Shown here piece after piece: positions 23,746-46,757 of a stretch of DNA of 46,757 nt (the stretch's first letter is position 1; every line of letters begins with the position of its first letter). The notes beneath the pieces were generated by a model. The model did not search any database, had not been told where the DNA came from, and worked only from the letters and a program-made list of their open reading frames with translations. The stretch lies in the IMG/VR virus record IMGVR_UViG_2681813146_000008, positions 1 to 46,757 of that record. One strand, given 5' to 3'. The position numbers and the translations under genes are program-made. This DNA comes from a virus. Its lineage: Duplodnaviria; Heunggongvirae; Uroviricota; Caudoviricetes.

Positions 23746-24108
23746 ATGGGATGGATCGGCGTTGATCTGGATGGCACGCTGGCGGTGTACCCGCCAGAGA
23801 GCGGGGCGCTAATAGGTGATGCCATTCCCGGCATGGCGGAAAGGGTCCGCAAATGGCACAAGGATGATATTGAAGTACGAATTTTTACCGTCCGGGCTGG
23901 TTCGCGTGCCGGAGTGAAGCAAGTTAAAGCCTGGTTGAAAGCCAATGAACTGCCGGACCTGATGGTGACGAACGTTAAAGACAGCGGCATGGTGGAATTA
24001 TGGGATGACAGAGCGATACGTGTTATCCGTAATACCGGTTCAGTATGCGCCGGTTGCAACGGCACATCGCAGTTCCACCACCATTCAGGAGATTTCACCA
24101 ACTGCTGA
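23746..24108 (+). CDS. Small HAD-like hydrolase-fold protein (cargo between portal and cos)
   Basis: 120 aa starting 4 nt after the Q stop; HAD motif I IGVDLDGTLAV and a WDD motif near the C-terminus. Confidence 0.6.
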   Translation: MGWIGVDLDGTLAVYPPESGALIGDAIPGMAERVRKWHKDDIEVRIFTVRAGSRAGVKQVKAWLKANELPDLMVTNVKDSGMVELWDDRAIRVIRNTGSVCAGCNGTSQFHHHSGDFTNC

Positions 24109-24262: not shown

Positions 24263-24281
24263 CTCGTATCCCCGCCACGCC
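24263..24281 (-). other. cos site of the P2-family prophage (19-nt cohesive-end sequence)
   Basis: Minus strand reads GGCGTGGCGGGGATACGAG, 14/19 identical to the P2 cohesive end GGCGAGGCGGGGAAAGCAC; lies just beyond the 3' end of Q as in P2. Confidence 0.65.
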
Positions 24282-24323
24282 TGCCCGCTTTGTGTAGCGG
24301 TTTTCATGCACCTGCATGACATA

Positions 24324-24350
24324 AGCAAAAGCCCGCCAGTTCTGGCGGGC
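24324..24350 (-). terminator. Terminator downstream of the DinI-like operon
   Basis: Hairpin gcccgcc-N6-ggcgggc followed on the minus strand by a T run. Confidence 0.5.
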
Positions 24351-24484
24351 CTCAGCAAAAACGATCCTCAAACGATCATGCGATTTCATGCGGCATAGAC
24401 ATGCACAACAGCACTAACGCCTCGCGTGGCTCGTTGTTCAACCTTGCGGACGGTAAAAACCAGTTTTATCGTCCGCAACGTTCG

Positions 24485-24718
24485 CTAATGTAACCAACTG
24501 TCGTCCTCCCAGACCTGCTGCATTATCTCCATCACCCGCTTTTTGTCTTCATCCAGTTTTAACCCGCTCAGTTCAACGCCATTGGCGCTGCCCTTGCGGA
24601 TACGAATTGCTGTTTTTGGATACAGAGGGCGCAAATTACGGTAAAGCTCGGATTCAAGGGCGTCCAGTGTAGACTGGCTAATCTTCTGCTCTTTATCGAT
24701 CATTATTTCAATGCGCAT
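24485..24718 (-). CDS. DinI-family protein (DNA-damage-inducible protein I-like)
   Basis: 77 aa, MRIE...DAL..EL...W pattern as in DinI; own AGGGA RBS; second gene of an SOS-box-controlled pair. Confidence 0.8.
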   Translation of the reverse strand: MRIEIMIDKEQKISQSTLDALESELYRNLRPLYPKTAIRIRKGSANGVELSGLKLDEDKKRVMEIMQQVWEDDSWLH

Positions 24719-24729
24719 ACAGATTCCCT

Positions 24730-24918
24730 TTAACTGGTTACGTCCATTGACCGGCAGTATTCATGGCTGCGGATTTTCGCCATCAACTCGTCGGTCAGTT
24801 CGGACACCCACTGGATAGCCAGCCGCTTTTCTTCGTCGCTGCACTCACTAGCCGCTACAAGCTTGATAAAAAAATCAATACGCTGGAGCTTTAATGACTC
24901 CAAAAGATAGTCCTGCAT
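24730..24918 (-). CDS. Small hypothetical protein, first gene of the SOS-regulated operon
   Basis: Start set at MQDYLL (AGGAGG RBS 6 nt upstream), 62 aa; the track ORF begins at an upstream TTG (24951). Confidence 0.6.
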   Translation of the reverse strand: MQDYLLESLKLQRIDFFIKLVAASECSDEEKRLAIQWVSELTDELMAKIRSHEYCRSMDVTS

Positions 24919-24966
24919 CTTCCCTCCTATCATTACACGGATACACAACAACTGTATATATACCCA

Positions 24967-24982
24967 CTGTTTATGCGTACAG
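24967..24982. promoter_or_regulatory. LexA (SOS) box CTGT-N8-ACAG
   Basis: CTGTTTATGCGTACAG, with an adjacent weaker box CTGTATATATACCCAC at 24952-24967; overlaps a candidate -10 (TATACT, 24981-24986) with a TTTACA -35 at 25002-25007 (15-nt spacer, short). Confidence 0.65.
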
Positions 24983-25077
24983 TATATGAGAGATTTAAAA
25001 ATGTAAAACTCTTTTTTGTCAGTTAATTGGATAAACTGACGCCAGTCAATAAAGCACGAATTGTTAAAGCTGCAGCA

Positions 25078-27471
25078 TCAGTACCACTGACGCCATTTGT
25101 CATCTTCCTGCAGCCTCTGGTTACGGTAAAAAATACGTAAACCGGCACCGGATGGAATGCTGCCGCCACGCAGAAGCAAATCAATCTCAGATGCACTACC
25201 TTCAAACCCTCTGGCAGTCAGTTCTGCCTCAAGCTGCAGGCGCTGCTGCTCCGAAATACTCTGTATGTATGCTTTTTTCCGCTTCGGTTTTACCAGTCTC
25301 AACCTGGCTGTCAGCTCCCGCCGTTCCTTCTGGCCCATGTTGTGGAGATATTCCTGCAGCTCCTTCTCACCCATGGTTTTAATATCAGGTAAATCACCCC
25401 CTGATTTGTTCAGATTTTCAACAGGGGGACAGTTATTGCCACGAGTCCAAGGGGCGCAAGCGCCCTGGTCGGCTGCCGCCTCCTGAACGTCAACGGCCTT
25501 ACGAACCATTTTCCACTTCACTGCATGAGTGCAGATCTTGCCCTCTGCAATGGGTGACCAGATGCCATAAATACGAATGCCGTGATCGCCATAGGCGGTC
25601 GGCTCTTCGTTGATTTCATAAGCGGTTCTGATCAGGTGATATTTGCGGGGAACCAGTACGCCGCCCTGCTTCATGATGTAGGTGGCAAAACAACCAGCAT
25701 CAGCAGCAGCCAGGATTGCATCAAGGCGCGGGTTATCCAGTACCGGCGCACCTGCTTTTTTGTCCCCCTGTTGCCTTGCCGCCTGACCAGCCAGCAATCG
25801 CAGTTCACGGTAAGCCTGACGCCCCGGAATGCCAAAGAAGCGGAATTGCTGAACACGATGCAGAGACGCCCAGGCATTAACGTATTCAGCATTATCACGC
25901 AGGGATTTCCCCGTTTCCTTGCTGATCTCGCCAGCCAGACCACGCCCGTCAATGTTCTTACTGATGTATTTCGCGATGTAGCTTGTTGGCGTACCTTTGC
26001 GCGGGTTAATCAACTCAGACTTAAAGCGCGGCCCAGTGTTATTGCCCAGCTCCTCGCGGTCTTCACGGATGGCAAACTTACGCAGTAATACAGTGATGGC
26101 GCGGCGGTCTTTTTTGCGCATAAAACACAACAGGTGCCAGTGAACTGTACCGTCATGATGCGGCTCAGCCACCCGCACGCCATACCAGCGCAATCCGGCT
26201 TTGTGCATCGCCTTACGAAATGCAGCAAACATGCCGACCAGGTAATCACTACTTTGTCTTACCGTCGCATTTGTCCAGGTTGGGTTGGGCCTGCCGTTAT
26301 TTAGCGTGGAATGGAAACGTGACGGACAGGTGATGGTGTAGAAAACGGCACAGTCACTGCGCATTTCTGCGATAAGCTCCAGACCTTTAACACAGGCCAT
26401 CATCTCATTGCGGCGATGCGCCGGGTTGCTGCTGCTGGCGTTTACCACATCTTCCATATCCAGCGTGTCACCGTCTTCGTTCACCAGTTCATGAGAACGG
26501 AAAAACTCCAGCGACTTACGGCGCTGCTCACGTTTATGCATCACGGCTTCATAGCTGACATAGGGAGATACTTTTTTGCTGACCAGACAGACAGCACGCA
26601 ACTGCTCTTCCCGCCATTCGCAACGCATCTTCCATAATTTCCTATGCCACCAGTCGGCGCACAGCATACGCGCCAGCGAACCCGGAATGAGTTCATAGGG
26701 CACGGGTTTACGGCGGTTTCTTTTCCGACGGAGTTGCTCAAACGCAGGCGGGATGACATCCAGTCGCAGGGTTTCTGCTGCCACCTTTTCCCATGTCTTG
26801 CGGATTTCTTCTGGCTTAACATCATCGGTGGCGTACAAATCACCACAAGCGGCATCAAGACACATGCTCATATGCGCAGCGACAAGAGTAGACAGGCGTT
26901 TCACCTGATCCTGACTCATTTCAGGCAGGATCAGCAGGCCGTCCAGCCCTTCATGGCTTGCCATAAAGCGAAAAGAAGTGGATAGCTGACTCTCGCGTAC
27001 ATGCTCCAGTCGTTCCAGACATGGCTTAATCGTCTCACGCAAATAGCGGGAATAAGCCTTTGGCCTGCCCAGGCTGCTGAAGTATTCAATACGTTGCATC
27101 AGCGGCTTGCTGATATGGGAAGGCTGGGCGCTGACATCTGCCAGAATGACCATGTCTGGGTTAAAACGCTGCTGCTCATGCGCCAGCTTTGCCCGACTAA
27201 TGAGCTTATCCTGCTCCATTTCGCGCTGGACAGGATCACGGGATTCATTAAAGAAATAACGCTCCCAGACCTGATCACTCAGTGCCTCACGGCGCAGCAG
27301 TTCCTGCTCGTTATCGGCAGCGTACAGAGTGATCAGGTTTGAGAGCGCAGAAACCGGCGCAACTTCCGCCGGGTCCAGATAAGGGTTAATGGCCTTTTTC
27401 GGGCTGTTCCATGAGAACGATGCGGCAGCCTCGTTAAAGCCGCAGCAGTTGTTCATATCGGCATGGTTCAT
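25078..27471 (-). CDS. A: Replication initiation protein A (rolling-circle nickase family)
   Basis: 797-aa ORF with P2 gpA-like motifs ([22 protein letters not shown]); the true start may be an internal Met. Confidence 0.88.
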
Positions 27472-30266: not shown

Positions 30267-30899
30267 ATGATACAGGTAAAGGTTGGAGAGAATACAGGGG
30301 GAAGAGAGGCTATCCATAGACTAATGGCAGCCTATGATTTCAAGTCCAGACAGCAACTTTGCGATCACTTAGGCGCATCAAAAAGCACCATGGCAAACAG
30401 ATACTTAAGAGATAGTTTTCCTGCAGAGTGGGTGATTCAGTGCGCCTTGGAAACAGGAGTTTCTTTACTGTGGCTAACCACCGGACAGGGGGAGCCAGGT
30501 CCAAACATTGAACCTAAAAAAAATATCAATTCCGTGAACTCCAGCAAGGTTGTACCTCTTTCTGAACTAGTATCTCCTGAAATTGACAAGGCGACTCTCA
30601 ACGGTGGTTTATTGGTCGATGCTGGAAAAGCAATCATTGATAGCAGCATACTCCCCTCAGACTCAAGCAACCTACTGCTGGTGACTACTTCTGGTGATTC
30701 TTATTTAATAGATCGCAACCAAACACCACCAGTAAATGGTATGTGGTTAGTCGATATCGACGGGATAAAAAGCATCGTTAAATTGACCCGACTCCCGGGA
30801 AACAAATTAGTAGTGCATCAGGATGATTCATCGTTTGAGTGCGGTCTGGATGACATTGAGGTAGTAGGCCGCGCACTGAAAATCATTAAGAGCCTTTGA
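30267..30899 (+). CDS. cI: CI immunity repressor (186 CI-like)
   Basis: 210 aa with N-terminal HTH; followed directly by int (lysogenic operon). Confidence 0.8.
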   Translation: MIQVKVGENTGGREAIHRLMAAYDFKSRQQLCDHLGASKSTMANRYLRDSFPAEWVIQCALETGVSLLWLTTGQGEPGPNIEPKKNINSVNSSKVVPLSELVSPEIDKATLNGGLLVDAGKAIIDSSILPSDSSNLLLVTTSGDSYLIDRNQTPPVNGMWLVDIDGIKSIVKLTRLPGNKLVVHQDDSSFECGLDDIEVVGRALKIIKSL

Positions 30900-31930: not shown

Positions 31931-33151
31931 ATGGATATTAAAAACAAAGTCAATAAAGAAAAGTTATTTGAGAACCATTTAAACTCATTATTAAAACAAG
32001 TCATTTCCGAACCAAAATTAAACCCTCCACTTATAGTACATAGAGATATAATAAGTGACTTCACTGAACGTTGCGATAAGTATCTAAAAACAATAATTAA
32101 ATACAAAAGCAACAATAAAGATGGGATGCCGAATTTTGATGAATTAATCAGCAAAGTTAAGAACATTCAAAATGGAATAACATTATCACTTGAAAGTTTT
32201 TTATCAGGTGATATCAAGTCAGCATATGACCACTTTGATAAAACATTCTCTGATAACTCAACAATCCAACACATACATCGCATCACTACTCCACTCAGTA
32301 GCATTTGCAATCATAAAAAACCATTATTTCGAGTTAGAAAAAGTGAAAATCCTCTAACGTCAAGAGATGAAATTTTCCATATTCCATTCTCCAATAGACA
32401 TTTTGTTAGTGCACAAAGATATTCAGTCGCTGGCTTACCATGTTTATATCTTGGCACTTCTGTTTATGTTTGTTGGCAGGAGATGGGAAAACCAGATTTT
32501 GACAAGCTTTTTATTTCATCATTTACTACCAGTGAAACTGAATATAAAGTCTTAAACTTTGCATCACAGCTTTTGTTACATCCCTCACCAAATTACGCCG
32601 ACGAAAATAAACTAGCCGAAACAAATAGAGTAAAGGCCTCTTATCTCATTTTCTGGCCTTTAATTATTGCATGTAATTATTTAAAAAATCATCGTTCTGC
32701 AACATTCATACAAGAGTACATTATCCCTAATTTGTTGATGCAATGGATTAGTAGAAAAACTTACTCGAAAATTGTCGGTGTAGCTTACTTCTCTACAAAA
32801 ATGCCTAATTCACGATTAAGTAACCGCTCAATAAATGTTGTATTTCCACCCAAAGTTACATATGAACAAACGGTAAAACAAAATTTTTGCCCTAAACTCT
32901 CCACATTATTCGACTTTACGCCACCTATTTCGTGGCAGGTCTTAAAAACATTAGATCATTCATCAATAACAGAAAATTCAATAGAATTGATGATGTCAAA
33001 GAGATATCTTCAAAGTCAAGAAAAACTGTCTGGAATTAAAAACTTCGAAGAGGACATTGTAAAACTATACCCCTTAACTGATTTTTACAAACTCGAAAGA
33101 AGTATTGATATGCTATTTGAATATAAAAAGATAGATAACCCCATACTATAA
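31931..33151 (+). CDS. AT-rich hypothetical protein with a RES-like motif (cargo between int and att)
   Basis: 406-aa ORF, strongly AT-rich and Lys/Asn-rich versus neighbouring phage genes; central segment RYSVAGLPCLYLGTSVYVCWQE resembles the RES-domain core; same strand and 10 nt downstream of int. Confidence 0.6.
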   Translation: MDIKNKVNKEKLFENHLNSLLKQVISEPKLNPPLIVHRDIISDFTERCDKYLKTIIKYKSNNKDGMPNFDELISKVKNIQNGITLSLESFLSGDIKSAYDHFDKTFSDNSTIQHIHRITTPLSSICNHKKPLFRVRKSENPLTSRDEIFHIPFSNRHFVSAQRYSVAGLPCLYLGTSVYVCWQEMGKPDFDKLFISSFTTSETEYKVLNFASQLLLHPSPNYADENKLAETNRVKASYLIFWPLIIACNYLKNHRSATFIQEYIIPNLLMQWISRKTYSKIVGVAYFSTKMPNSRLSNRSINVVFPPKVTYEQTVKQNFCPKLSTLFDFTPPISWQVLKTLDHSSITENSIELMMSKRYLQSQEKLSGIKNFEEDIVKLYPLTDFYKLERSIDMLFEYKKIDNPIL

Positions 33152-33496: not shown

Positions 33497-34684
33497 GTGG
33501 CACGGACAACACGCCCCCTTACCAACACCGAAGTTCTTCGCGCTAAAGCGTTAGAGAAGGATCTAACTCTGCATGATGGCGATGGCCTTTTCCTGATAGT
33601 GAAAACCAGCGGGAAAAAGCTCTGGCGTTTCCGTTATCAACGTCCAGCGACAAAACAGCGGACAATGATGGGGCTTGGTGCTTTCCCCGCCCTTTCACTT
33701 GCTGACGCCCGAGGGTTAAGAGCGGATTACCTTGCCTTGTTAGCCAACGGAATTGACCCACAAATTCAGGCCGAAGTTGCAGAGGAACAGCAGCAAATCG
33801 CTCTGGACAGTATTTTCTCAATGGTCGCCGCTAACTGGTTCCAGCTCAAAAGTAAAAGCGTTACCCCTGATTACGCAAAAGACATTTGGCGCTCATTGGA
33901 GAAAGATGTATTCCCTGCCATCGGTGAGATCCCCGTTCAGCAAATTAAAGCCCGAATATTAGTTGAAGCATTGGAACCAATCAAAGCTCGTGGAGCGCTT
34001 GAGACTGTACGTCGACTAGTGCAGCGTATTAACGAGATAATGATTTATGCCGTAAACACTGGTCTGATTGATGCCAATCCAGCATCAGGTATTGGAATGG
34101 CCTTTGAGAAGCCCAAAAAACAAAACATGCCGACGCTGCGGCCAGAAGAATTGCCGAAGCTGATGCGTTCTTTAGTCATGTCAAATCTGTCTGTTCCGAC
34201 TCGCTGTCTCATTGAATGGCAACTCCTGACGCTCGTGCGCCCTTCTGAGGCCTCTGGTGCCCGTTGGGCAGAGATCGATCTCGATACGAAGCTCTGGACT
34301 ATTCCAGCCGAACGGATGAAAGCTAAGCGGGAACACATTGTTCCTTTATCACCACAGGCATTAGAGATTCTGGATGTAATGAAGCCAATTAGCGCTCACC
34401 GAGAACATGTTTTTCCCAGCAGGAATGATCCTAAACAACCTATGAATAGCCAAACTGCTAATGCTGCTCTTAAAAGGATTGGTTATGGCGGTAAACTCGT
34501 TGCTCATGGGCTTCGTTCTATAGCTAGCACAGCGTTGAACGAGTCTGGTTTTAATTCCGATATTATAGAATCAGCTTTAGCGCATATAGATAAAAATGAA
34601 GTACGGCGGGCGTATAATCGTTCTATTTATTTAGAACAACGCAGAGAATTGATGTCATGGTGGGGTATAAAAGTAAAATCATAG
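33497..34684 (+). CDS. int: Tyrosine integrase, P4/CP4-57 IntA family
   Basis: 395 aa, GTG start with AAGGAG RBS; adjacent to the ssrA 3' end repeat as in CP4-57. Confidence 0.92.
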   Translation: MARTTRPLTNTEVLRAKALEKDLTLHDGDGLFLIVKTSGKKLWRFRYQRPATKQRTMMGLGAFPALSLADARGLRADYLALLANGIDPQIQAEVAEEQQQIALDSIFSMVAANWFQLKSKSVTPDYAKDIWRSLEKDVFPAIGEIPVQQIKARILVEALEPIKARGALETVRRLVQRINEIMIYAVNTGLIDANPASGIGMAFEKPKKQNMPTLRPEELPKLMRSLVMSNLSVPTRCLIEWQLLTLVRPSEASGARWAEIDLDTKLWTIPAERMKAKREHIVPLSPQALEILDVMKPISAHREHVFPSRNDPKQPMNSQTANAALKRIGYGGKLVAHGLRSIASTALNESGFNSDIIESALAHIDKNEVRRAYNRSIYLEQRRELMSWWGIKVKS

Positions 34685-34698
34685 GGCTTTCGCCCTAT
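34681..34698. terminator. Bidirectional hairpin between convergent int and the 913-aa gene
   Basis: atagggc-tttc-gccctat. Confidence 0.4.
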
Positions 34699-34708
34699 GA
34701 TTTAATAA

Positions 34709-37450
34709 TTATAAAGTTTCCAATGCGAAATTTCGATATCTCATTAGTGCATAAATATATCTAGTAGTAGATGCAGGTGTCCATGTTCTCTCAAGTTCTT
34801 TTGCTAGTGCTGCCCCCATCATTTTCTTATCATCATCGCCAAATTTATTTACATAAGCATTTAATATTTTGATAGCTGGAGATTCAGTGACTAACCTAGC
34901 TAAAGCCCTTTCAAGGCTGATGCTTTCTAATATAACTTCTATTTTATTATTTATCACCACACCATCATCTTGTCGAGAACAAAAACCTAAAGAAATTAAA
35001 TCCTGCACTGCATTCCTATGTTTATTCGCCTGAATGAATGAATGGCTCATTTTTTTATTGGCGCACAGATACTCGGCAACTTCGAGTGTTTTTTCTGGCG
35101 AAGTAGCAGCTAAGAAAAGTGATCCTCTTCTATTACGTGCCCCTCTTTTATCTAGATCAATCGCCCCAAATGCTGGGGAAAACAACTCGCCATCATATAT
35201 AACCACAGATTTCCCGATAACCGCTATCAGCCCCGTAAATTGTAACCAAGCCAATAATTTTGAACTATAAGACTTAGGATAACCACCGTCTTTATTCTTA
35301 TAAGTATGGGCTATTATAGATTCATACTTATCGATAGGAACTCTTCTTAAATCGGCATCAACAATATTCTCTGCCAATTCTAACAAAACACTATGACTCT
35401 TAAAATGCTCACGAAGAAACTCAGGGACATTTGTGATAGTCTGTTTACAAACTATATTCCCATTTAAATCTCTGTCTATGAGAACAAAATACTGCAAATC
35501 CATTAAAACATTTATTAATGTTCCCCGACTATATTTTAGTTTAGTTTGCAGTTCATCCAAGCTAATGGTTTTGAACGAGTTTACAACATCAAGAATTAAC
35601 AAAACCATTTTCGGAGATGTTGATGGCATATATGACCATGGTATAACTGGAAGGTCATTTCCTTTCAAGTAATCTCGAAAAACGTCCCAATACACTGATA
35701 ATTTTTCACCTGTTTTAATTACCATCCTATCTGAAATTAGCTCTAAAACAGTATCACTCCCAAACTCTTTAGTAACTTCATATTGACTAATCGGAGAGTT
35801 CTTTGCCACAAATTTTAAACATGAATTTTGTTTTTCAGGCCTATCTAAATCCTCATGAAATAAATTTGAGATCTGTAGTTGACTAACCAACATTTGATCC
35901 TGTGAGATACCTCCTTTTAGTTTTTTGAATACATGAATACAAAGCTTTTTCAATAACCATGGATAACCTTGAGCTTGCTGAATAAGACGCGTGCGTAAAG
36001 GTTTATTTAATTTAAACCCTGTATTTAGCTCGAAACTATTAATTAATTTAGATGAATCTTTTAGATCAAAAGGCTCAAGTTTCTTTTCAACCCTATAATC
36101 TTTTAGCCGATTCCACATTGAGTACGCTGGATTTTCATCCCCTAAAGTAATACCAGTTCTCCATGAGAACCCTACAACTAAATTGCTTTGTAGTGCCGAG
36201 ACATCGAGTGCGAATCGTTCAAATTCTTTAAATAGCCCGAATAGTTCCTCTTTCATAAAGACTTCTTCGAACTGATCAAAGAAAATAGTCAATACCTTAT
36301 CATGTTCGGAAAGGTATTTTAAACATTCCTGAACACTCTCAGATCCTATGATATCCGTAACACTCTCAATCAGGAATGGTTTTTCATATTCGATAAAACC
36401 TTCTTTGATCGCACTGCTGAAAGCTTTAACGACAGCTTCTGCCACAAAACGTCCGCCTCTAGCAGAACGGACATCGACTGGTGTAAGGAAGAATTTATTC
36501 TTCCATTTTTGATTTTTAAATCTTGAGGATAGCCTTGCTATTAAAGATGACTTTCCATTTCCTGAACCGCCTATAAGTGATAGGACTCTACTTTGAGAGC
36601 TATTTCCTCTAACATTCTCAAGATAATCCCAAACTTCTTTCTGTATATATTCGCGACCAACAAAGTCTTTCGGCTGACATGGCTTATAATCCATAAAATC
36701 GTCAGCAAGAATTATTTCACTGACAATTTCCCTTTCGTAATTTTCAGATAATTTTGAAGACGAAACAGTTTGTTCCGGTTCAGATAATATATAAAAATCA
36801 GTTACTTCCAACCCTTCAAAAAGCCCTTGCTCCTTTATAATATCACTTATGCGACTGACACTTGGAATTTTACTATTTTTATTTATAGCGAACGGCACCA
36901 CTCTTATAGGGCTACCATTTTCAACTTCTTGCAAAAGCCAAGTCATTTCTATTTCAGGATGAACTAAAAGTGTTGCACTAGTATATTTTGCCGGAATGTC
37001 ATCTGTTGGAATATCCTCAACCTTACCTGTTGCAAGTATAGATATAAGAATCTCTTTTTTATCAAAAAAAGAATAATCTATACGCTCATCAAGTCTATAA
37101 TCCTCAAGCGTTGACTGAGCATCTTTACCCAAATCAGAAATTGAAAAAAGTGCAATTTTTTTAACTCTCAACCTAAATGCTTGAGAAAATGCCAAATCAA
37201 CCACAGATGAATCAACTTTTTGCTGCATGAATTTACATTCTACATACAGCTTTTCATTTGATGGTGTATGAGTAGCCTGAATATCAATTTCCATGCCAGA
37301 TTTTCTGACTTCCATACCATCAATTCTATACGATTGCCGGCGGAGTATATCAGCGCAAAAATTCTCGAAAAACTTCCCTCTCGAGGTATTGGAATAATTA
37401 CTAGGTACACAAACTATCAAATCTTTATTCAGTGGTAACGGCCTGGCCAT
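34709..37450 (-). CDS. Large hypothetical protein: N-terminal Mrr-like PD-(D/E)xK nuclease motif plus P-loop NTPase; candidate antiviral defence protein
   Basis: 913-aa AT-rich ORF; N-terminus GMEIDIQA...YVECKF (D...E-x-K); Walker A LIGGSGNGKSSL and Walker B-like VLTIFFDQFEE; occupies the position of gop-beta-cII between cos and int. Confidence 0.7.
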   Translation of the reverse strand: MARPLPLNKDLIVCVPSNYSNTSRGKFFENFCADILRRQSYRIDGMEVRKSGMEIDIQATHTPSNEKLYVECKFMQQKVDSSVVDLAFSQAFRLRVKKIALFSISDLGKDAQSTLEDYRLDERIDYSFFDKKEILISILATGKVEDIPTDDIPAKYTSATLLVHPEIEMTWLLQEVENGSPIRVVPFAINKNSKIPSVSRISDIIKEQGLFEGLEVTDFYILSEPEQTVSSSKLSENYEREIVSEIILADDFMDYKPCQPKDFVGREYIQKEVWDYLENVRGNSSQSRVLSLIGGSGNGKSSLIARLSSRFKNQKWKNKFFLTPVDVRSARGGRFVAEAVVKAFSSAIKEGFIEYEKPFLIESVTDIIGSESVQECLKYLSEHDKVLTIFFDQFEEVFMKEELFGLFKEFERFALDVSALQSNLVVGFSWRTGITLGDENPAYSMWNRLKDYRVEKKLEPFDLKDSSKLINSFELNTGFKLNKPLRTRLIQQAQGYPWLLKKLCIHVFKKLKGGISQDQMLVSQLQISNLFHEDLDRPEKQNSCLKFVAKNSPISQYEVTKEFGSDTVLELISDRMVIKTGEKLSVYWDVFRDYLKGNDLPVIPWSYMPSTSPKMVLLILDVVNSFKTISLDELQTKLKYSRGTLINVLMDLQYFVLIDRDLNGNIVCKQTITNVPEFLREHFKSHSVLLELAENIVDADLRRVPIDKYESIIAHTYKNKDGGYPKSYSSKLLAWLQFTGLIAVIGKSVVIYDGELFSPAFGAIDLDKRGARNRRGSLFLAATSPEKTLEVAEYLCANKKMSHSFIQANKHRNAVQDLISLGFCSRQDDGVVINNKIEVILESISLERALARLVTESPAIKILNAYVNKFGDDDKKMMGAALAKELERTWTPASTTRYIYALMRYRNFALETL

Positions 37451-37570
37451 TTATACACTCCTTATCTCATATCCTTTTGACAAGTAAGATATCAACCTCG
37501 AGTTTCAGAAACCAGTATCTTGCGCATATTTACGACATCAAAACTTTTGGTTATGCACCCACAGCGCGCA

Positions 37571-37589
37571 GTGCTTTCCCCGCCTCGCC
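37571..37589 (-). other. cos site of the P4-like satellite (19-nt cohesive-end sequence)
   Basis: Minus strand reads GGCGAGGCGGGGAAAGCAC, an exact match to the P2/P4 cohesive end. Confidence 0.8.
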
Positions 37590-37692
37590 CGCCCGCTTTG
37601 CGGGGCGGTTTTAATACAGTTGCACTGACACGCTCAGACCGCGCCGGGAATGGTGCGGTCTGCAGAAAATGAGGCAGGAAAACGCATGCAAA

Positions 37693-37723
37693 GCCATGCA
37701 CCTTATCGATGCATGGCTTTTTT
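37693..37723. terminator. Hairpin plus T-run between psu and cos
   Basis: gccatgca-N9-tgcatggc followed by tttttt on the plus strand. Confidence 0.4.
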
Positions 37724-37753
37724 CAGTAAAAACGGGAGGATTTTCGGGGAATT

Positions 37754-38326
37754 TTACACAGACTGACGTGATGCCAGTTGCGCACTTTTACGCGAAAAAA
37801 TCATGTTCTGCGCAGGGGTGAATTTTTCACGGCTGTCATCCACCGAAGCCGCGTCAGGCCTGAATCCGATGGTCGTTAAAATGTCACTATCCTGTGCGGA
37901 ATAATTAATTTTTTCCCCCTTCGCAAGCCAGGACAGAAGGGCTTCACGCAGGGCATCTGTGGCACGCTGTATGGCACAGTTTCGGGCAATGGCCGTCAGC
38001 TCACTGTAGCCCATCAGCTCCGGTGCCAGTGCCGCCGCCAGTGCTGTGCCGTGCTGCTGCATAAAATCATTCAGCCGGTCGCGGATGCTGATGTGCTGAA
38101 CGGCTTCATGCGAACGAATATAACGACCGGCGGCCTGATTCACCTGCCATTTTCTGACTTCGATAATATTGCGTAATTCGTCCAGGCGACTGACGTTTCT
38201 GCCTTCTCCTGACTGAAGCCGCAGATATTCCTGTTCGGCCGCAGCCAGCTCATTTTTGCGTTGCAGCCATGCTGCTTTGTTATTCTGACAGGTGTCAAAG
38301 GCCTGCTGTAAGGCTGTGCTTTCCAT
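37754..38326 (-). CDS. psu: Polarity suppression protein Psu (Rho antagonist, capsid decoration)
   Basis: 190 aa, sequence recognised as P4 Psu (MESTALQQAFDTCQNNKAAWLQRK...). Confidence 0.9.
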   Translation of the reverse strand: MESTALQQAFDTCQNNKAAWLQRKNELAAAEQEYLRLQSGEGRNVSRLDELRNIIEVRKWQVNQAAGRYIRSHEAVQHISIRDRLNDFMQQHGTALAAALAPELMGYSELTAIARNCAIQRATDALREALLSWLAKGEKINYSAQDSDILTTIGFRPDAASVDDSREKFTPAQNMIFSRKSAQLASRQSV

Positions 38327-38399
38327 CGTTATCTCTTTCTCATCATGCTGAAGAATAAAAATACGGTGTGCGGCGACGGCCGGTGTTAACCGGCAGCCC

Positions 38400-38900
38400 T
38401 CATTCCAGACGCAGCGAATATGATTGTGTTTTTAACCGTACTGGCGGCAGTTCCTGTTTTTCATGCAGGCTTTCTGCAAGCTCGTCCGGCGTGACCGGGC
38501 GGACAATGAAGCGGTTGATGGTCTGAAGCGTTTTAAACACCAGACCACAGCCCGGATCCGTGCACACATAAAAACGCTCGGTGACTTCCTGAGACAGACG
38601 CCGCGATGTTCTTGACAGCGCAAGGCCTTTACATCTCCGACAACAATATCCGGTAACAAGCATTCTTTTCGGGCGCTTCATGCTGCCGGAGGCTGACGTC
38701 AGTGAATCGCGGTATCTCTGTTTGCCTGAAATGTATTCCATTCCTGAATCTTTACAGTCAGAGAAAAAGCTTTCACTCGCTTCAAATGTCGCAGAGCAAT
38801 AAATATTCCGGCACTGTGCAATCATTATCTTGGTGCCATCGTCCATGAAATGTGCGCAACGGGTGTGAGCAACATGTCCACACGACGGGCAGTAAATCAT
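38400..38900 (-). CDS. delta: Delta late-gene transactivator (tandem Ogr-like zinc fingers)
   Basis: 166 aa with two Ogr-type zinc-finger units (CPSCGHVAHTR... and ...CCRRCKG...CTDPGCG). Confidence 0.9.
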   Translation of the reverse strand: MIYCPSCGHVAHTRCAHFMDDGTKIMIAQCRNIYCSATFEASESFFSDCKDSGMEYISGKQRYRDSLTSASGSMKRPKRMLVTGYCCRRCKGLALSRTSRRLSQEVTERFYVCTDPGCGLVFKTLQTINRFIVRPVTPDELAESLHEKQELPPVRLKTQSYSLRLE

Positions 38901-39631
38901 GACAGCAGTCCTCTGGCCTTAAGCTCTGCTCCCTGCTGGTCTATTTTGTCCTGCCACACCTTGCGCTGTGCCGGTGTGCCTGCCACCTCATAATCCATGT
39001 GCGGGAGTGTTGCCGCTGACAGTCCGGTCAGCCGGAGAACCGGCTCGCCGGTGAGGCTGATTTGCATCTGTTTTATTTTCTGTTCCAGCGATGATTTCAC
39101 CTGCTGCATGACAGCCTTATCGGGTGCGACGTAGCCCTGATGCCCGGTGGTGTTGGCGAGCGGATTTTCCTGTACCAGAATGCTCAGATGCATTGCCCGG
39201 ACAAGCGCCTCACAGGTTTCATTCAGGGCGTGTTCCAGCTCATGCTCTGCATACAGACTCAGAAGGTGATGATGTGCCTTCCGGTAGGCGGTGGCCGTGC
39301 TGTCACACGCCCCTTTCAGGCGTTCGCGTTCAAAATTCAGCACCACGGCCAGATTGTCATATTCCTGTACCAGCTCCCGGCGTGCCACGCGCTCAATGTG
39401 GCGCTGTTTCAGCTCGTCGCTCAGGACACCACCGGCTGCACGAAAGGCCGTGCGCCAGTCGTCAGCGTCGTTTCCGTCGGCCTGCGCCAGCGCATTTTTT
39501 TCCTGCTCTGCCCGTTCAATGGCCGTGACGGTCTCATCCATCAGTCGGGCGTTCTCAAGGTGGGCGGCTCTGGCCTTTTCCAGTTGTGCCAGTGCGGGTT
39601 GCAGATATTCAGGGATGGTGTTGTCAGACAT
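38897..39631 (-). CDS. sid: Sid capsid size determination (external scaffold) protein
   Basis: Start set at MSDNTIPEYL (AGGAG RBS), 244 aa as in P4 Sid; the track ORF extends to 39697. Confidence 0.85.
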   Translation of the reverse strand: MSDNTIPEYLQPALAQLEKARAAHLENARLMDETVTAIERAEQEKNALAQADGNDADDWRTAFRAAGGVLSDELKQRHIERVARRELVQEYDNLAVVLNFERERLKGACDSTATAYRKAHHHLLSLYAEHELEHALNETCEALVRAMHLSILVQENPLANTTGHQGYVAPDKAVMQQVKSSLEQKIKQMQISLTGEPVLRLTGLSAATLPHMDYEVAGTPAQRKVWQDKIDQQGAELKARGLLS

Positions 39632-39665
39632 TTTCCGGCTCCTCGTCACTTCAGGTTGAGAAAAT

Positions 39666-39721
39666 TGTGACGTACACCGGACAACAACACGACGCATTGC
39701 AGATGTGCCAGCCCTGACACA
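39666..39721. promoter_or_regulatory. Psid late promoter with two Delta/Ogr dyads (TGT-N12-ACA)
   Basis: TGTGACGTACACCGGACA (39666-39683) and TGTGCCAGCCCTGACACA (39704-39721), centres about 38 bp apart, 35-90 nt upstream of the sid start. Confidence 0.6.
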
Positions 39722-39801
39722 GGAGACTCATCCTCACACCGGCAAGCCAGGAAAAGGTCGCTGGAAAAAACGGCTTACTGTTTATTTTTTTTATATTTTA
39801 C

Positions 39802-39905
39802 TGTTCACCTCTGTTCACCATAAGAAAAAAGATAAGTAATACAGTAAGTTAAAGGGTGAACAATCGCAGTAATGACTGTTCACCGTCTGTTCACCACTGT
39901 TCACC
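39802..39905. repeat. Iteron cluster (six TGTTCACC octamers), candidate satellite ori
   Basis: Octamers at about 39802, 39812, 39877, 39888, 39898 (direct) and 39855 (inverted), mostly at 10-11 bp spacing. Confidence 0.7.
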
Positions 39906-40064
39906 CGTTGATGGGCTTTTTGTGCTGTTTATTACTGTTTGTTTTTATTAATTCGCCGGGAATGAATAAGAAAAAACGATTTGTATTTCACTATAAAAAT
40001 TACGAATTGCTTTAAGTGGCTTTAAATGACTTTAAGTGGAGATGAACAAAAAATACACAAGCAT

Positions 40065-40082
40065 TGTAAGGCTGCCGGAACA
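40065..40082. promoter_or_regulatory. Delta/Ogr-type dyad upstream of the alpha operon (PLL-like late promoter)
   Basis: TGTAAGGCTGCCGGAACA about 110 nt upstream of the first + strand gene. Confidence 0.4.
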
Positions 40083-40184
40083 AATCCCCCCTGTTGCGTC
40101 TGCTGAAAATATTCACAAAATAAAGCGCTACCCGAAGCCGGACGGACTTATCCGGTGCTGTATGGACATTAACGAGGTAGCCCG

Positions 40185-40451
40185 ATGCAAGCTGTTTTTT
40201 CTTCCCCGTCTCCCGCCCCTGTGACGCCACTGATGCCGCTGCCGGACATCACACAGGAGCGTTTTTTACGTCTTCCGGAAGTGATGCACCTGTGCGGCCT
40301 GTCACGCTCGACCATCTATGAACTCATCCGTAAGGGGGAATTTCCGCCGCAGGTGAGTCTTGGCGGTAAAAATGTGGCCTGGCTGCACTCTGAAGTCACC
40401 GCATGGATGGCCGGGCGCATTGCCGGACGCAAACGGGGGTACGACGCATGA
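40185..40451 (+). CDS. AlpA/Vis-family small HTH regulator
   Basis: 88-aa ORF with GAGG RBS; RLPEV...[11 protein letters not shown]...V.W pattern typical of AlpA-family regulators. Confidence 0.7.
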
Positions 40452-41047
40452 TGATGCCCGCTCTGCAAAAACTCCCTTTTTCTGGCTTGCCTTTTTCCGG
40501 CATTTGCGGATATAGTTTTTCCGCTGCCGCAAAATCGGCAGCCGGGCGTGAGAACCCGAGCAATTCACAGGCGACATATGACGCGCCACGCGTCTTTTTT
40601 TGTGTCGCAATCAATGCCACAGAGCGCCAGATTATGGTGTGGTGTGTGGTCAGTCGTGCAGATGGCATTCCGTGCATCCTGCCCGCGTCCGCTCATTATG
40701 CCGCAGAGTCAATGGTAGCTCAGGCGGGGCAGCCTCCGGGCTGGCCGGTATCCTGTGAAGCCGGTATTCTCACCCCCGTCTGGGCTATCGCCATCGAGCG
40801 TGAGAACTCCGGCGATAGCGTTATTTGCTATTCACAGGAGGCTGCCATCATGGCTACAACCCTTACCCCCTCACACCCTGAATTTGTCTTTGTGTTTGCG
40901 GCTGTCCGTCGCGCAGACCGTCATCCCCGTATCTGTATGCTTCGCACCGTCGCCGGTGATGAACGCAGCGCCCGCCGTTCCCTTGTCCGTGACTATGTGC
41001 TCTCCCTTGCTGCCCGTCTGCCGGTGATGGGGGTGTCCCGTGCGTAA
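40448..41047 (+). CDS. Hypothetical protein (199 aa)
   Basis: ATG overlapping the upstream stop; length matches a P4 alpha-operon ORF; no recognisable motif. Confidence 0.45.
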
Positions 41048-41327
41048 TAAAAAAGCCCCTCAGACCGTCTCAGCGCGTCATGACGCCCGTGAACACCTCA
41101 GCATTGAGGCTTACCATAAGCTCAACCGCGCCAGCGCCGTATCCCAGTTTGTTGGGGGTGATTTGATTCACCGTGAACTCTCCGGCCTGCATCAGCTCTA
41201 CATTCCGCATATTTTCAGCTACCTGAATGAAGATATTGATTTTGTGCTGAATGAGCTGAAAGCCAAAGGCCTGTGCCGCGATTTTCTCGCCCAGCAGAAA
41301 GACCGGGGAGACAGGACGCATGTTTGA
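41040..41327 (+). CDS. Hypothetical protein (95 aa; position of P4 epsilon)
   Basis: 95-aa ORF in the operon leading to alpha; the epsilon assignment is positional only. Confidence 0.5.
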
Positions 41328-41775
41328 TTTTCCCCAGCCCGGTGAGATTTACCGTTCTGCCGGTTTTCCCGATGTGGCCGTGGTCGGCATTCTGGAAGAC
41401 GGTATTCCGTGGGAAATGCCGTACCGCTGCCCGGACATTGTCTGGAATCCGTACCGCCGTAAATTCAGTATCCTTGTGCGTATCCTCGCTGACGGGCGCA
41501 CCACAGACATCCCGCTGGGGCGTTTTCTGCGGGAATTTACCTGTGACCGTCCTGACCTGTTCAAACGCAGCCCCGTAAACCGGCATGCGGTACTGAAAGA
41601 AATGGCCGGAGACCCGGAATTACAGAAATGGCGGGAGAAATATCTGGATATTTACCCGCAGGACCCTGTTCCGGTCAGCCGGGCGGCACCGGTGGCGCGG
41701 GAATGGCGGGAAATTCCCCGCACGGAGCCTGACCCGGAAACCACCCCGGATAACAGTTACCGCAATTATCTGTAA
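41320..41775 (+). CDS. Hypothetical protein (151 aa)
   Basis: Overlapping start with the previous ORF; same length as the P4 ORF preceding alpha. Confidence 0.55.
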   Translation: MFDFPQPGEIYRSAGFPDVAVVGILEDGIPWEMPYRCPDIVWNPYRRKFSILVRILADGRTTDIPLGRFLREFTCDRPDLFKRSPVNRHAVLKEMAGDPELQKWREKYLDIYPQDPVPVSRAAPVAREWREIPRTEPDPETTPDNSYRNYL

Positions 41776-41910
41776 TTAAAAAACGACACCCGAAAAATTA
41801 AATGTGCGTATTCGCGCAGGGATACGCACGTCTTCAGGAGACGCAGATATGCCTTATCAGTTAATGCAACCGGCACGGAATGCAGTCATCTGTCACAGGG
41901 AGGAAAGCAA

Positions 41911-42231
41911 ATGAAAACACCCTTACCGCCCGTCTTACGCGCAGCCCTTTACCGTCGCGCTGTCGCCTGTGCCTGGCTGACCGTGTGCGAACGTCAGCAC
42001 CGCTACCCGCATCTCACCCTTGAGTCACTGGAGGCGGCCATCGCCGCTGAGCTGGAGGGCTTTTATCTGCGCCAGCACGGTGAGGAAAAAGGGCGTCAGA
42101 TAGCCTGTGCCCTGCTGGAAGATTTAATGGAATCCGGCCCCCTGAAGGCCGCGCCGTCGCTGTCCTTTCTCGGGCTGGTTGTGATGGATGAACTCTGTGC
42201 CCGTCACATAAAAGCGCCGGTACTGCACTGA
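41911..42231 (+). CDS. Hypothetical protein (106 aa)
   Basis: ORF immediately upstream of alpha. Confidence 0.55.
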
Positions 42232-42245
42232 AGGAGAACAACACC

Positions 42246-44579
42246 ATGAAAATGAACGTAACCGCCACCGTCAGCCATGCGCTCGGCCACTGGCCGCGTA
42301 TTCTCCCGGCGCTGGGGATTCAGGTGCTGAAGAACCGTCATCAGCCCTGTCCGGTCTGTGGCGGGAGTGACCGCTTCCGTTTTGATGACAGGGAGGGGCG
42401 CGGCACCTGGTACTGCAATCAGTGTGGTGCCGGTGACGGCCTGAAACTGGTTGAAAAGGTGTTTGGTGTTTCCCCGTCCGACGCGGCCGCAAAGGTGGCT
42501 GCCGTGACCGGCAGCCTGCCACCGGCTGACCCGGCAGTGACGACCGCCGCCGTTGCTGAAACAGACGCTGCCCGGAAGAACGCCGCCGCACTGGCACAAA
42601 CCCTGATGGCGAAAACCTGTCCCGGAACCGGTAACGCCTACCTGACCCGCAAGGGCTTTCCCGGCCGGGAATGCCGGATGCTGACCGGCACACACAGAGC
42701 CGGTGGCGTGAGCTGGCGCGCCGGTGACCTTGTGGTGCCACTGTATGACGACAGCGGCGAACTGGTTAACCTTCAGTTAATCAGTGCTGACGGCCGTAAG
42801 CGCACCCTGAAAGGCGGACAGGTCAGGGGCACCTGTCACACCCTTGAAGGACAGAATCAGGCAGGAAAACGTCTGTGGATAGCGGAGGGATACGCGACCG
42901 CACTTACCGTGCATCACCTGACCGGTGAAACGGTGATGGTGGCGCTTTCTTCCGTGAACCTCCTTTCTCTGGCCAGCCTTGCCCGACAGAAGTATCCGGC
43001 CTGTCAGATTGTCCTTGCCGCAGACCGTGACCTCAGCGGTGACGGCCAGACAAAAGCCGCCGCAGCCGCAGATGCGTGTGAGGGCGTTGTTGCCCTGCCG
43101 CCGGTCTTCGGTGACTGGAATGATGCCTTCACGCAGTACGGCGGGGAGGCCACCCGTAAGGCCATTTACGATGCCATCCGGCCACCGGCTGAAAGCCCGT
43201 TCGACACCATGAGCGAAGCGGAGTTTTCCGCCATGAGTACCAGCGAAAAGGCCATGCGTATCTATGAGCATTACGGCGAGGCGCTCGCGGTCGATGCCAA
43301 CGGCCAGCTTCTGTCCCGTTATGAAAATGGTGTCTGGAAGGTGCTGCCACCACAGGACTTTGCCCGGGATGTGGCCGGGCTGTTTCAGCGGCTGCGCGCG
43401 CCGTTCTCCTCCGGGAAGGTGGCCTCCGTGGTGGACACCCTGAAGCTGATTATTCCGCAACAGGAAGCCCCCTCCCGCCGCCTGATTGGCTTTCGTAACG
43501 GCGTGCTCGACACGCAGAACGGCACGTTCCACCCGCACAGTCCGTCACACTGGATGCGCACCCTGTGCGATGTGGATTTCACCCCGCCGGTGGAAGGTGA
43601 AACGCTGGAAACCCACGCTCCCGCGTTCTGGCGCTGGCTTGACCGTGCCGCCGGTGGCCGTGCGGAAAAACGCGACGTGATTCTGGCCGCACTGTTTATG
43701 GTGCTGGCAAACCGCTACGACTGGCAGCTCTTTCTGGAGGTGACCGGTCCCGGCGGCAGCGGCAAAAGTATCATGGCCGAAATAGCCACCCTGCTGGCTG
43801 GTGAGGATAACGCCACGTCGGCCACCATCGAGACGCTGGAATCCCCGCGTGAACGTGCCGCGTTAACTGGCTTCTCACTGATACGCCTGCCGGACCAGGA
43901 AAAATGGAGCGGCGACGGAGCCGGACTCAAGGCCATCACCGGCGGCGATGCGGTGTCCGTTGACCCGAAATACCGGGATGCGTACTCCACGCACATCCCG
44001 GCGGTAATTCTGGCCGTGAACAATAACCCGATGCGCTTCACCGACCGCAGCGGCGGCGTGTCACGCCGGCGGGTGATTATTCACTTCCCGGAACAGATAG
44101 CCCCGCAGGAGCGCGACCCGCAGCTTAAGGACAAAATCACCCGCGAGCTGGCGGTCATCGTGCGTCACCTGATGCAGAAGTTCAGCGACCCGATGCTCGC
44201 CCGGTCACTGCTTCAGTCCCAGCAGAACTCAGACGAGGCACTGAACATCAAACGGGATGCCGACCCGACGTTTGATTTTATCGGCTATCTGGAAACCCTG
44301 CCGCAGACCAGCGGCATGTATATGGGGAACGCCAGTATCATCCCGCGTAATTACCGTAAATACCTCTATCACGCCTATCTGGCCTACATGGAGGCAAACG
44401 GCTACCGGAATGTACTCAGTCTGAAAATGTTCGGGCTGGGGCTGCCGGTGATGCTGAAGGAATACGGACTGAATTACGAGAAGCGCCATACCAAACAGGG
44501 GATACAGACCAACCTGACGCTGAAAGAGGAAAGCTACGGCGACTGGCTGCCAAAATGTGACGACCCTGCAACAACCTGA
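42246..44579 (+). CDS. alpha: Alpha primase-helicase replication protein
   Basis: 777 aa; N-terminal zinc-binding primase motif CPVCGGSDRFRFDD...YCNQCG; Walker A GPGGSGKS in the helicase region. Confidence 0.92.
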   Translation: MKMNVTATVSHALGHWPRILPALGIQVLKNRHQPCPVCGGSDRFRFDDREGRGTWYCNQCGAGDGLKLVEKVFGVSPSDAAAKVAAVTGSLPPADPAVTTAAVAETDAARKNAAALAQTLMAKTCPGTGNAYLTRKGFPGRECRMLTGTHRAGGVSWRAGDLVVPLYDDSGELVNLQLISADGRKRTLKGGQVRGTCHTLEGQNQAGKRLWIAEGYATALTVHHLTGETVMVALSSVNLLSLASLARQKYPACQIVLAADRDLSGDGQTKAAAAADACEGVVALPPVFGDWNDAFTQYGGEATRKAIYDAIRPPAESPFDTMSEAEFSAMSTSEKAMRIYEHYGEALAVDANGQLLSRYENGVWKVLPPQDFARDVAGLFQRLRAPFSSGKVASVVDTLKLIIPQQEAPSRRLIGFRNGVLDTQNGTFHPHSPSHWMRTLCDVDFTPPVEGETLETHAPAFWRWLDRAAGGRAEKRDVILAALFMVLANRYDWQLFLEVTGPGGSGKSIMAEIATLLAGEDNATSATIETLESPRERAALTGFSLIRLPDQEKWSGDGAGLKAITGGDAVSVDPKYRDAYSTHIPAVILAVNNNPMRFTDRSGGVSRRRVIIHFPEQIAPQERDPQLKDKITRELAVIVRHLMQKFSDPMLARSLLQSQQNSDEALNIKRDADPTFDFIGYLETLPQTSGMYMGNASIIPRNYRKYLYHAYLAYMEANGYRNVLSLKMFGLGLPVMLKEYGLNYEKRHTKQGIQTNLTLKEESYGDWLPKCDDPATT

Positions 44580-44595
44580 CCATCATGACTCATCT

Positions 44596-44619
44596 GACCG
44601 GCATCTGCCGGTCTTTTTT
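44596..44619 (+). terminator. Intrinsic terminator after alpha
   Basis: Perfect hairpin gaccggca-tc-tgccggtc followed by tttttt. Confidence 0.7.
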
Positions 44620-44633
44620 CATCCCTGAATCCC

Positions 44634-44938
44634 CCGAAGGTGAACAATCCAGTGTTCACCCTTCACCGTATGTTCACCCGTTATCACACTGAAATTAAAA
44701 GAGAAAAACGAAAGGTGAACAGTGTGAACAATCAAATCAAAAAAAACTTTTTTTCTTCCTGTGTGATTTTCAGTGCGGAGGATTAATCGCCGGTATGAGT
44801 CACACCGGCAGAATGCCGGAGGTGAAGAATCGAATGTTCACCCTTCACCCATTATTTACCACCTATCCAACTGAAATAAAAGGAAAAAACAGAAAGGTGA
44901 ACAGTGTGAACAGTTCTTCCGAAAAAAAATTTTTTTCC
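44634..44938. repeat. crr-like region: two ~120-bp imperfect direct repeats, each with TGTTCACC/GGTGAACA octamers
   Basis: Unit A about 44634-44757 and unit B about 44816-44938; octamers at about 44639, 44653, 44671, 44714 and 44835, 44896 plus degenerate copies; each unit ends in an A-run/T-run. Confidence 0.7.
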
Positions 44939-45082
44939 TGTACGATATAGCATCAATCCAAGTAAAAATGCGCTTTCATTTCACATTAACTTACAGCCAT
45001 TGGTATACGATTAGGTATACGCACAAAAACTGAATTAAACAAAATCATTAAAAATCAAAGCAATACAATATTTATTCAAACT

Positions 45083-45104
45083 CCGCCAGCTCCACCAATC
45101 ATGA
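45083..45104 (+). repeat. Degenerate att repeat at the right end of the satellite
   Basis: ccgccagctccaccaa-tcatga matches the ssrA 3' end with two single-base deletions. Confidence 0.6.
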
Positions 45105-45226
45105 TTGGACGGTGTAAGGACTACACCAACAAAAACAGGAAGTTATAAGTCTCAGCAGGACACCGACCAGACGGTGAGGAGACAAAAAAGGATACGCAAC
45201 GGAGTCGCGACTCCCTATGACATTAA

Positions 45227-45249
45227 AGCCCGCTGATGCGGGCTTTTTT
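45227..45249 (+). terminator. Intrinsic terminator in the host junction region
   Basis: agcccgc-tgat-gcgggct followed by T6; a perfect 14-bp palindrome ggagtcgcgactcc lies just upstream (45201-45214). Confidence 0.5.
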
Positions 45250-45680
45250 ATTGGTCCTGACCCGCCCTGAATAGAATTCATCCAATTACAGTCCAGACAT
45301 ATACAGTATCCCTCAGCTCAGTATCAGCTTCTCGACAAATGGTCACTGTTATTTACCCGTTGCCAGAAAGAGAATAATTTGCTCCCATAGCCAGCCTTCC
45401 CGGAATCTGTATATTCATTAATATTGTTATCGATTCCATCAAGTAACATAGGTTGGATGCGATTGATCTTACTCACATTAGTCGACACGGAACTCAGTAA
45501 GTTGAACTCTGGAAAAGCAGTTTAAATAGCATTTAAACAAATGCCACCAGTTCGAAAAAGAGTATAAGCACACTTAATATATTGTTTTAATTATTCATTT
45601 CCTTTCAACCCAATTCTTATCCCTCACATTATTTGTTATTAATTTGTTATTTTTGATCACAATAAGAAAACAATATGTAA

Positions 45681-46757
<1,077 letters not shown>

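Follow-up and report, generated by a model that had tools for sequence, protein, structure and literature searches.

The stretch analysed here, referred to below as the window (46,757 nucleotides; IMG/VR record IMGVR_UViG_2681813146_000008), is a segment of an E. coli chromosome with a smpB-ssrA region 99.8% identical to E. coli genomes and the tmRNA gene (ssrA) at positions 697-1059. It carries a prophage of the P2/186 family inserted adjoining ssrA, whose conventional phage map corresponds to the minus strand of the window. The integrase gene (int) and cI lie at the far side, and the gene order runs over an ORF at the apl position, cII, genes for DUF5347 and DUF2732 proteins, a TraR-like gene, dam, gene A, a tum-type operon and cos to the portal and terminase genes, which are transcribed in the opposite direction. 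Gene A (25078-27471, minus strand), an ORF of 797 aa labelled replication endonuclease in all matched records, serves as the upstream landmark for placing the operon. The latter consists of a promoter, a 62-aa ORF (ORF62) and a 77-aa DinI-family gene, and occupies the minus strand between the end of gene A (25078) and cos. This is the position of p95-tum in phage 186, as the initial annotation had suggested; the coordinates and an alignment with 186 agree on it. A 901-bp region covering the operon was matched in 1260 of 5426 complete E. coli genomes, about a quarter.

Several other elements were found along the window. Past the prophage int, a second integrase gene (33497-34684) is followed by an island (33497-46757 with the integrase) that contains isrK (40523-40600), a C4 antisense RNA with an a1b1 target (40510-40795) and a 777-aa ORF (42246-44579); it looks like a P4-like satellite in tandem with a P2-like helper at ssrA. 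Directly after the prophage integrase, a 406-aa ORF (31931-33151, plus strand) with a translation rich in Asn, Lys and Ile and no Pfam match may be cargo or serve in defence at the end of the prophage. A 120-aa ORF (23746-24108, plus strand) between the portal gene and cos has only weak matches (E about 1e-9), to the PHROG families for phosphoheptose isomerase and polynucleotide kinase, and is probably a small moron of the HAD/phosphatase type.

The first gene of the operon, the tumA-like ORF62 (24730-24918, minus strand; ATG at 24918, stop codon at 24732-24730), is preceded by a Shine-Dalgarno sequence, AGGAGG (24923-24928). A longer reading of 73 aa from a TTG at 24951 was rejected, as the homologues begin with MQDY and the ribosome-binding site precedes the ATG at 24918. 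After a gap of 11 nt (24719-24729), which contains the Shine-Dalgarno sequence AGGGA (24725-24729) of the second gene, follows the tumB-like gene of 77 aa (24485-24718, minus strand). The succession of a 62-aa ORF, a stop codon, a separate ribosome-binding site and a DinI-family gene agrees in every element with the initial annotation.

The assignment of the second gene to the DinI family is clear. It scored 85.5 bits against the Pfam DinI model PF06183 (cut-off 24.2; E 3.2e-24) over all profile positions (1-63 of 63), and its product matches the DinI structure PDB 1GHH (E 6.6e-9) with residues 1-75 aligned, including the acidic C-terminal W-E-D-D-S-W. It belongs to PHROG 189, where it covers positions 71-148 of 151, the profile being long enough to span a fused protein of Tum length. 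Against NCBIfam NF007893, the equivalog model of chromosomal DinI, it reached 51.6 bits, below the cut-off of 111 bits, which identifies it as a phage DinI-like paralogue of the TumB type and not an orthologue of host dinI. The protein is 88% identical to both its Fels-2 and its E. coli HS counterparts and shares 41% of its residues with 186 Tum in the C-terminal part of the latter. The gene is the counterpart of PSP3 tumB and of the C-terminal half of 186 Tum. The comparison with PSP3 (our locus L001) also reveals the mosaic nature of the operon (window 24485-24918), for TumB is 89.6% identical and the neighbouring TumA has no BLASTP similarity to ORF62.

Two RNA structures and cos lie downstream, all on the minus strand. 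A stable hairpin without a U-run directly follows the stop codon of the DinI-like gene (24440-24482; RNA fold -21.6 kcal/mol, z-score -4.1); it sits at the place of the partial terminator t95a of 186 and may function as such. The intrinsic terminator of the operon (24321-24353), a GC-rich stem followed by UUUUGCUU, was missed by a generic scan and confirmed by RNA folding (-23.6 kcal/mol, z-score -4.1). The cohesive-end sequence GGCGTGGCGGGGATACGAG (cos, 24263-24281) aligns with the point at which the two ends of 186, right and left, are joined; in 186, cos is annotated at positions 1-19 as GGCGTGGCGGGGAAAGCAT. A search of Rfam over the operon region returned no known RNA.

ORF62 belongs to PHROG 698, a family of unknown function (E 2.8e-36). 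Nothing credible was found for it in Pfam and NCBIfam, and a sequence-profile search of the PDB gave no match; its 480 close relatives are called 'hypothetical protein' in every source that gives them a name, and a search of 1.84 billion representative proteins yielded 58 relatives, down to about 34% identity. We compared a 22-sequence alignment of the ORF62 family with a 17-sequence alignment of 186 Tum N-terminal modules and TumA proteins using hhalign. The two profiles matched with a probability of 95.9% (E 6.1e-9) over 43 columns, pairing residues 2-44 of ORF62 with residues 2-44 of 186 Tum, including a nearly invariant Cys. Both families have in common the motif E-x3-[LI]-[QE]-R-[IV]-x-[LM]-x-A-R-L-x-A-x3-C-x3-[DE]-[KR]-x-[LI]-A. 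This single profile-profile comparison of short helical proteins identifies ORF62 as a remote homologue of the N-terminal module of 186 Tum; its product is a predicted antirepressor of the Fels-2 type. PSP3 TumA, for which BLASTP gave no alignment with ORF62, was placed by MAFFT in the 186 Tum N-terminal alignment, with 27% identity to 186 Tum. The AlphaFold2 model of ORF62 is a two-helix hairpin (helices 2-22 and 27-59; pLDDT 86.6) with the near-invariant Cys in the turn between the helices, and a Foldseek search of the PDB with this model returned only generic helical hairpins, all with E >1. ORF62 is 90% identical to ECHS_RS04495 of E. coli HS and 87% identical to the Fels-2 protein. With dN/dS values of 0.01-0.07 against its orthologues, at dS of up to 1.3, it is a real gene under strong purifying selection at the protein level.

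Upstream of ORF62, the -35 hexamer TTTACA (25002-25007), a spacer of 17 nt (24985-25001) and the -10 hexamer TACTGT (24979-24984) were read from the minus strand. The generic sigma-70 promoter scan did not call this promoter, because TACTGT agrees with the -10 consensus at only three of six positions. The -10 hexamer coincides with bases 1-6 of LexA box 1, so that the overlap of a LexA box with a candidate -10 element, as initially annotated, is borne out. We scored LexA sites with a symmetrised matrix built from an informally compiled set of 28 E. coli sites (training range 12.7-27.1 bits). Box 1 (TACTGTACGCATAAACAGTG, 24965-24984, minus strand; core 24982-24967, CTGTACGCATAAACAG) reached 19.0 bits with a heterology index of 7.5, and box 2 (CAGTGGGTATATATACAGTT, 24950-24969, minus strand; core 24967-24952) 16.8 bits with an index of 9.05. 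They are the two top 20-mers of the whole window, above the weakest training site (12.7 bits) and within the training range, and the third-best scored 9.9 bits; first-order Markov simulations gave 0.33 expected hits per window at >=12.7 bits and 0.02 at >=16.8 bits. The exact pattern CTGT-N8-ACAG occurs twice in the window (0.44 expected), once as the core of box 1, the consensus box that had been recognised at 24967-24982. The second, weaker box proposed at the same time is present and has the lower score, but it overlaps the first instead of abutting it, with one base common to both 16-nt cores and a distance of 15 bp between their centres. The other exact CTGT-N8-ACAG match (24610-24625), inside the DinI-like gene in codons for LYPKTA, was rejected; at 9.9 bits and a heterology index of 13.9 it falls below every training site and is probably not a LexA site. 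Binding of host LexA is thus predicted for 24950-24984.

The promoter was compared across 80 IMG/VR loci with an ORF62 97-100% identical to that of the window, together with Fels-2, E. coli HS and a phage of Yersinia. The alignment comprised 62 distinct segments, in which the -35 hexamer is TTTACA in 54, at a 17-nt spacing, and the -10 hexamer TACTGT in 57; the half-sites of box 1 read CTGT/ACAG in 50 segments and CTGT/CCAG in nine, and those of box 2 GTGG/ACAG in 59. Half-sites are more than 90% conserved, whereas spacers and flanks vary. Scoring of 68 distinct 130-nt upstream sequences placed both boxes at >=12.7 bits and at the 15-bp offset in 65 of them, in the same place relative to the -10 element as in the window. 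In one IMG/VR relative (L007, about 1680-1810) the sequence upstream of the 62-aa gene has been replaced, with the -35 hexamer and box 1 missing and a remnant of box 2 left (13.0 bits); SOS control may be altered in this natural variant.

Could the boxes be chance similarities in an AT-rich promoter region, the operon lying outside SOS control? Box 1 has a spacer containing G/C and a mid-range score, below the family median of 22.3 bits, and box 2 has a degenerate left half-site, GTGG. Yet nothing else in the 46.7 kb scores as high as these two, their exact 15-bp offset is kept in 65 of the 68 distinct promoters, and their half-sites stay conserved amid varying spacers. Moreover, a lexA(Ind-) allele abolishes mitomycin C induction of the P2-like E. 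coli HS prophage DuoHS, a relative with the same box layout (PMC12055606). We therefore give chance similarity hardly any credence, and predict that the operon is under LexA control.

The presumed target of the antirepressor is encoded by cI (30267-30899, plus strand), which is flanked by the ORF at the apl/cox position, the CII gene (PF06892) and int. The product is an immunity repressor of the 186 type, matching Pfam PF07022 (E 5.4e-31) and PF16452 (E 5.6e-28). Pfam gave no match to a self-cleaving peptidase domain in this CI, and SOS induction of the prophage should therefore need an antirepressor. The repressor is 57.6% identical to CI of Fels-2 and 44% identical overall to CI of E. coli HS (76% in the N-terminal and 34% in the C-terminal domain). 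Given this low overall identity, the functional evidence from HS transfers to the window only if the antirepressor recognises a conserved surface.

The range of CI partners bears on this point. With CI clusters defined at <80% identity, near-identical ORF62 proteins (97-100%; loci L007-L086) were found with at least 17 CI clusters, with identities down to 35%, and two loci (L015 and L045) carry a 186-like CI alongside ORF62. In nearly all partner loci the N-terminal domain of CI is 56-88% identical to that of the window, and the C-terminal domain 26-66%. This pattern suggests either a conserved target surface or frequent shuffling of modules. The window-type CI (>=80% identical) is paired with ORF62 in 19 loci, and the pairing is therefore recurrent and not a one-off.

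Such diversity leaves room for a different role of the operon, namely that of an SOS-regulated but mainly host-modulating moron, which tunes the host SOS response through its DinI-like product and does not control the prophage of the window, for instance after a mismatch of antirepressor and CI brought about by recombination. Not every pairing of ORF62 with the many CI clusters need work, and the region is mosaic, as seen against PSP3. The recurrence of the window-type pairing speaks against this explanation, as do the strong purifying selection on ORF62 across these CI backgrounds and the conserved N-terminal domain of nearly all partners, with which a common target surface would agree. Moreover, a CI of the 186 type in which Pfam finds no self-cleaving peptidase domain would need some antirepressor for its SOS induction. 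We consider a moron of this kind unlikely and favour an operon that controls its own prophage. If the conserved N-terminal surface of CI is the target, with which the alignments are compatible, cross-induction of heteroimmune prophages could follow. One might then tentatively picture the 62-aa TumA of the Fels-2 type as a broad-spectrum antirepressor, which recognises the conserved N-terminal DNA-binding domain of many 186-type CIs, so that one SOS-induced copy induces several heteroimmune P2-like prophages in trans, and whose colicin-like double LexA operator, compared with the one box of 186, raises the damage threshold and makes it more all-or-none. This is a possibility that we hold with reserve; neither the broad spectrum nor the threshold set by the double box was found in the literature searched.

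Functional evidence comes from relatives. Tum of 186 is an anti-CI factor, expressed from the LexA-regulated promoter p95, that drives prophage induction and has, according to the authors, a limited 'sequestration capacity' (PMC7708051). In Fels-2 and PSP3, tum is split in two by a stop codon, and the upstream gene of PSP3 is the antirepressor (PMC3121763). The record of PSP3 annotates tumA and tumB. The primary source on the split tum of Fels-2 is Bunny et al. (2002), cited here by way of PMC3121763. A literature search on TumA/TumB returned only unrelated papers.

In DuoHS, an in-frame deletion of 'tum' (ECHS_RS04495) abolished mitomycin C induction, separately from the effect of lexA(Ind-) (PMC12055606). 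In RefSeq, ECHS_RS04495 is a 'hypothetical protein' gene of 189 bp adjoining the DinI-like ECHS_RS04500. The published primers NHR24 and NHR28 match the start and stop codons of the HS 62-aa ORF upstream of the DinI-like gene; the deletion accordingly joined start codon to stop codon in the 62-aa gene and left the DinI-like gene and its ribosome-binding site intact.

These details bear on a further explanation, in which induction is really the work of the DinI-like protein, through RecA or CI, and the 62-aa ORF is only an accessory or a leader peptide needed for downstream expression. No part other than the DinI module belongs to a recognisable family, and databases often label the DinI-like gene 'SOS operon TUM protein'. 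In the accessible part of PMC12055606, no complementation of the tum deletion is seen, so that a polar effect on the DinI-like gene is formally still allowed. Against the DinI-like protein as inducer stands the loss of induction in a deletion that left the DinI ribosome-binding site and gene in place. The record of 186 assigns inhibition of DNA binding by CI only to full-length Tum and a modulating role to its truncated, DinI-only forms, the antirepressor activity of PSP3 is reported for the upstream gene (PMC3121763), and the purifying selection on ORF62 acts on its protein. We regard this explanation as very improbable, and ORF62 as the predicted antirepressor.

The closest known systems differ from the operon of the window in instructive ways. 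The p95-tum unit of 186 likewise lies between gene A and cos and has an N-terminal antirepressor module, to which ORF62 is homologous, ahead of a DinI-like one; it is directed at a CI of the 186 type, the presumed target in the window too, and its -10 element begins at the first base of the LexA box (the record of 186 gives the same base as the start of both). In 186, however, both modules are fused in one Tum protein of 146 aa, with internal starts giving DinI-only products; a single near-consensus LexA box (27.5 bits) takes the place of the two overlapping boxes, and orf97, absent in the window, follows tum. The DinI parts share no more than the 41% identity given above, and the N-terminal modules are alike at the profile level only. 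Fels-2 (STM2728/STM2726.1) and E. coli HS (ECHS_RS04495/ECHS_RS04500) have direct orthologues in the same two-cistron layout and under the same double LexA box; they differ in their immunity repressors and in the presence of extra ORFs between the DinI-like gene and cos, where the window has none. Fels-2 is also integrated, we presume, at ssrA like the prophage of the window. PSP3 shares the split two-cistron operon with its upstream antirepressor gene, but has a single LexA box (29.1 bits), a TumA outside the BLASTP range of ORF62, and an atypical CI of 286 aa with a duplicated N-terminal domain.

The operator itself has its counterpart in colicin operons, in which two LexA boxes overlap in the same manner, with cores sharing one base and centres 15 bp apart. 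The box 2 sequence of Fels-2, CAGTGGTTATATGTACAGTA, is presumably the same as a colicin E1 box. Overlapping paired boxes are a hallmark of colicin operators; two LexA dimers bind there, with very tight repression or late induction as the result, and keep the genes from being expressed at the wrong time (PMC2994835). The colicin operators control a toxin together with a lysis gene, whereas the boxes of the window would control a phage antirepressor gene. A likeness by description exists to Gifsy-1/2/3 and Fels-1 (GfoA, GftA, FsoA), in which LexA-repressed operons encode a DinI homologue and a small antirepressor that binds and so inactivates a non-cleavable repressor (PMC3121763); in these lambdoid phages the gene order is reversed, with dinI first, and the repressor belongs to another family.

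Overall, to judge by the sequence elements observed here, the homologies of both genes, their conservation and the type of repressor, the operon very probably serves for SOS induction of a prophage of the 186/Fels-2 type at ssrA and is composed of a LexA-repressed promoter, a 62-aa antirepressor acting on CI and a DinI-like second product. The initial annotation had proposed that it may be the DNA-damage induction switch of the prophage, split into two cistrons, and this reading is supported by the 186 position, the homology to the Tum N-terminal module, the DinI gene, the 186-type CI and the genetics of the HS orthologue. The dependence on LexA and the need of the 62-aa gene for induction, as demonstrated by others in relatives, would apply to the window by analogy.

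The following course of events may be envisaged. In an undamaged cell, host LexA would sit on the two overlapping boxes, cover the -10 element and the presumed start site of the sigma-70 promoter, and so silence the two-gene transcript. DNA damage would trigger RecA-stimulated self-cleavage of LexA and free the promoter. The 62-aa helical hairpin would then bind the 186-type CI and stop it from binding its operators, a direct contact that we infer, and with CI off the operators the early lytic promoter would fire and the prophage be induced. The DinI-like protein is probably not the inducer itself; most likely it would act on RecA filaments, tuning the strength or duration of the SOS signal. 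By analogy with colicin operators, the paired boxes probably repress the promoter more tightly, and set the threshold for induction higher, than the one box of 186 does.

A split tum antirepressor operon is already known from Fels-2 and PSP3 and has been tested genetically in E. coli HS, so the mechanism is established and the finding confirms rather than extends knowledge. Two points are small additions to the known system, the conserved pair of LexA boxes, where 186 and PSP3 have one, and the occurrence of one antirepressor with so many CI types; residual interest lies in these two features, the breadth of CI partners being an apparent one, and in the unannotated 62-aa family. For the prophage of the window and the relatives matched in roughly one in four complete E. 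coli genomes, the operon would explain how DNA damage is sensed without a cleavable repressor. It is also of value for annotation, as the 62-aa family, where named at all, goes under 'hypothetical protein', without a Pfam or NCBIfam model, and the Tum name is often put on the DinI-like gene. Tying the family to Tum through its profile, and to the genetics of E. coli HS, would let such prophages be annotated as SOS-inducible.
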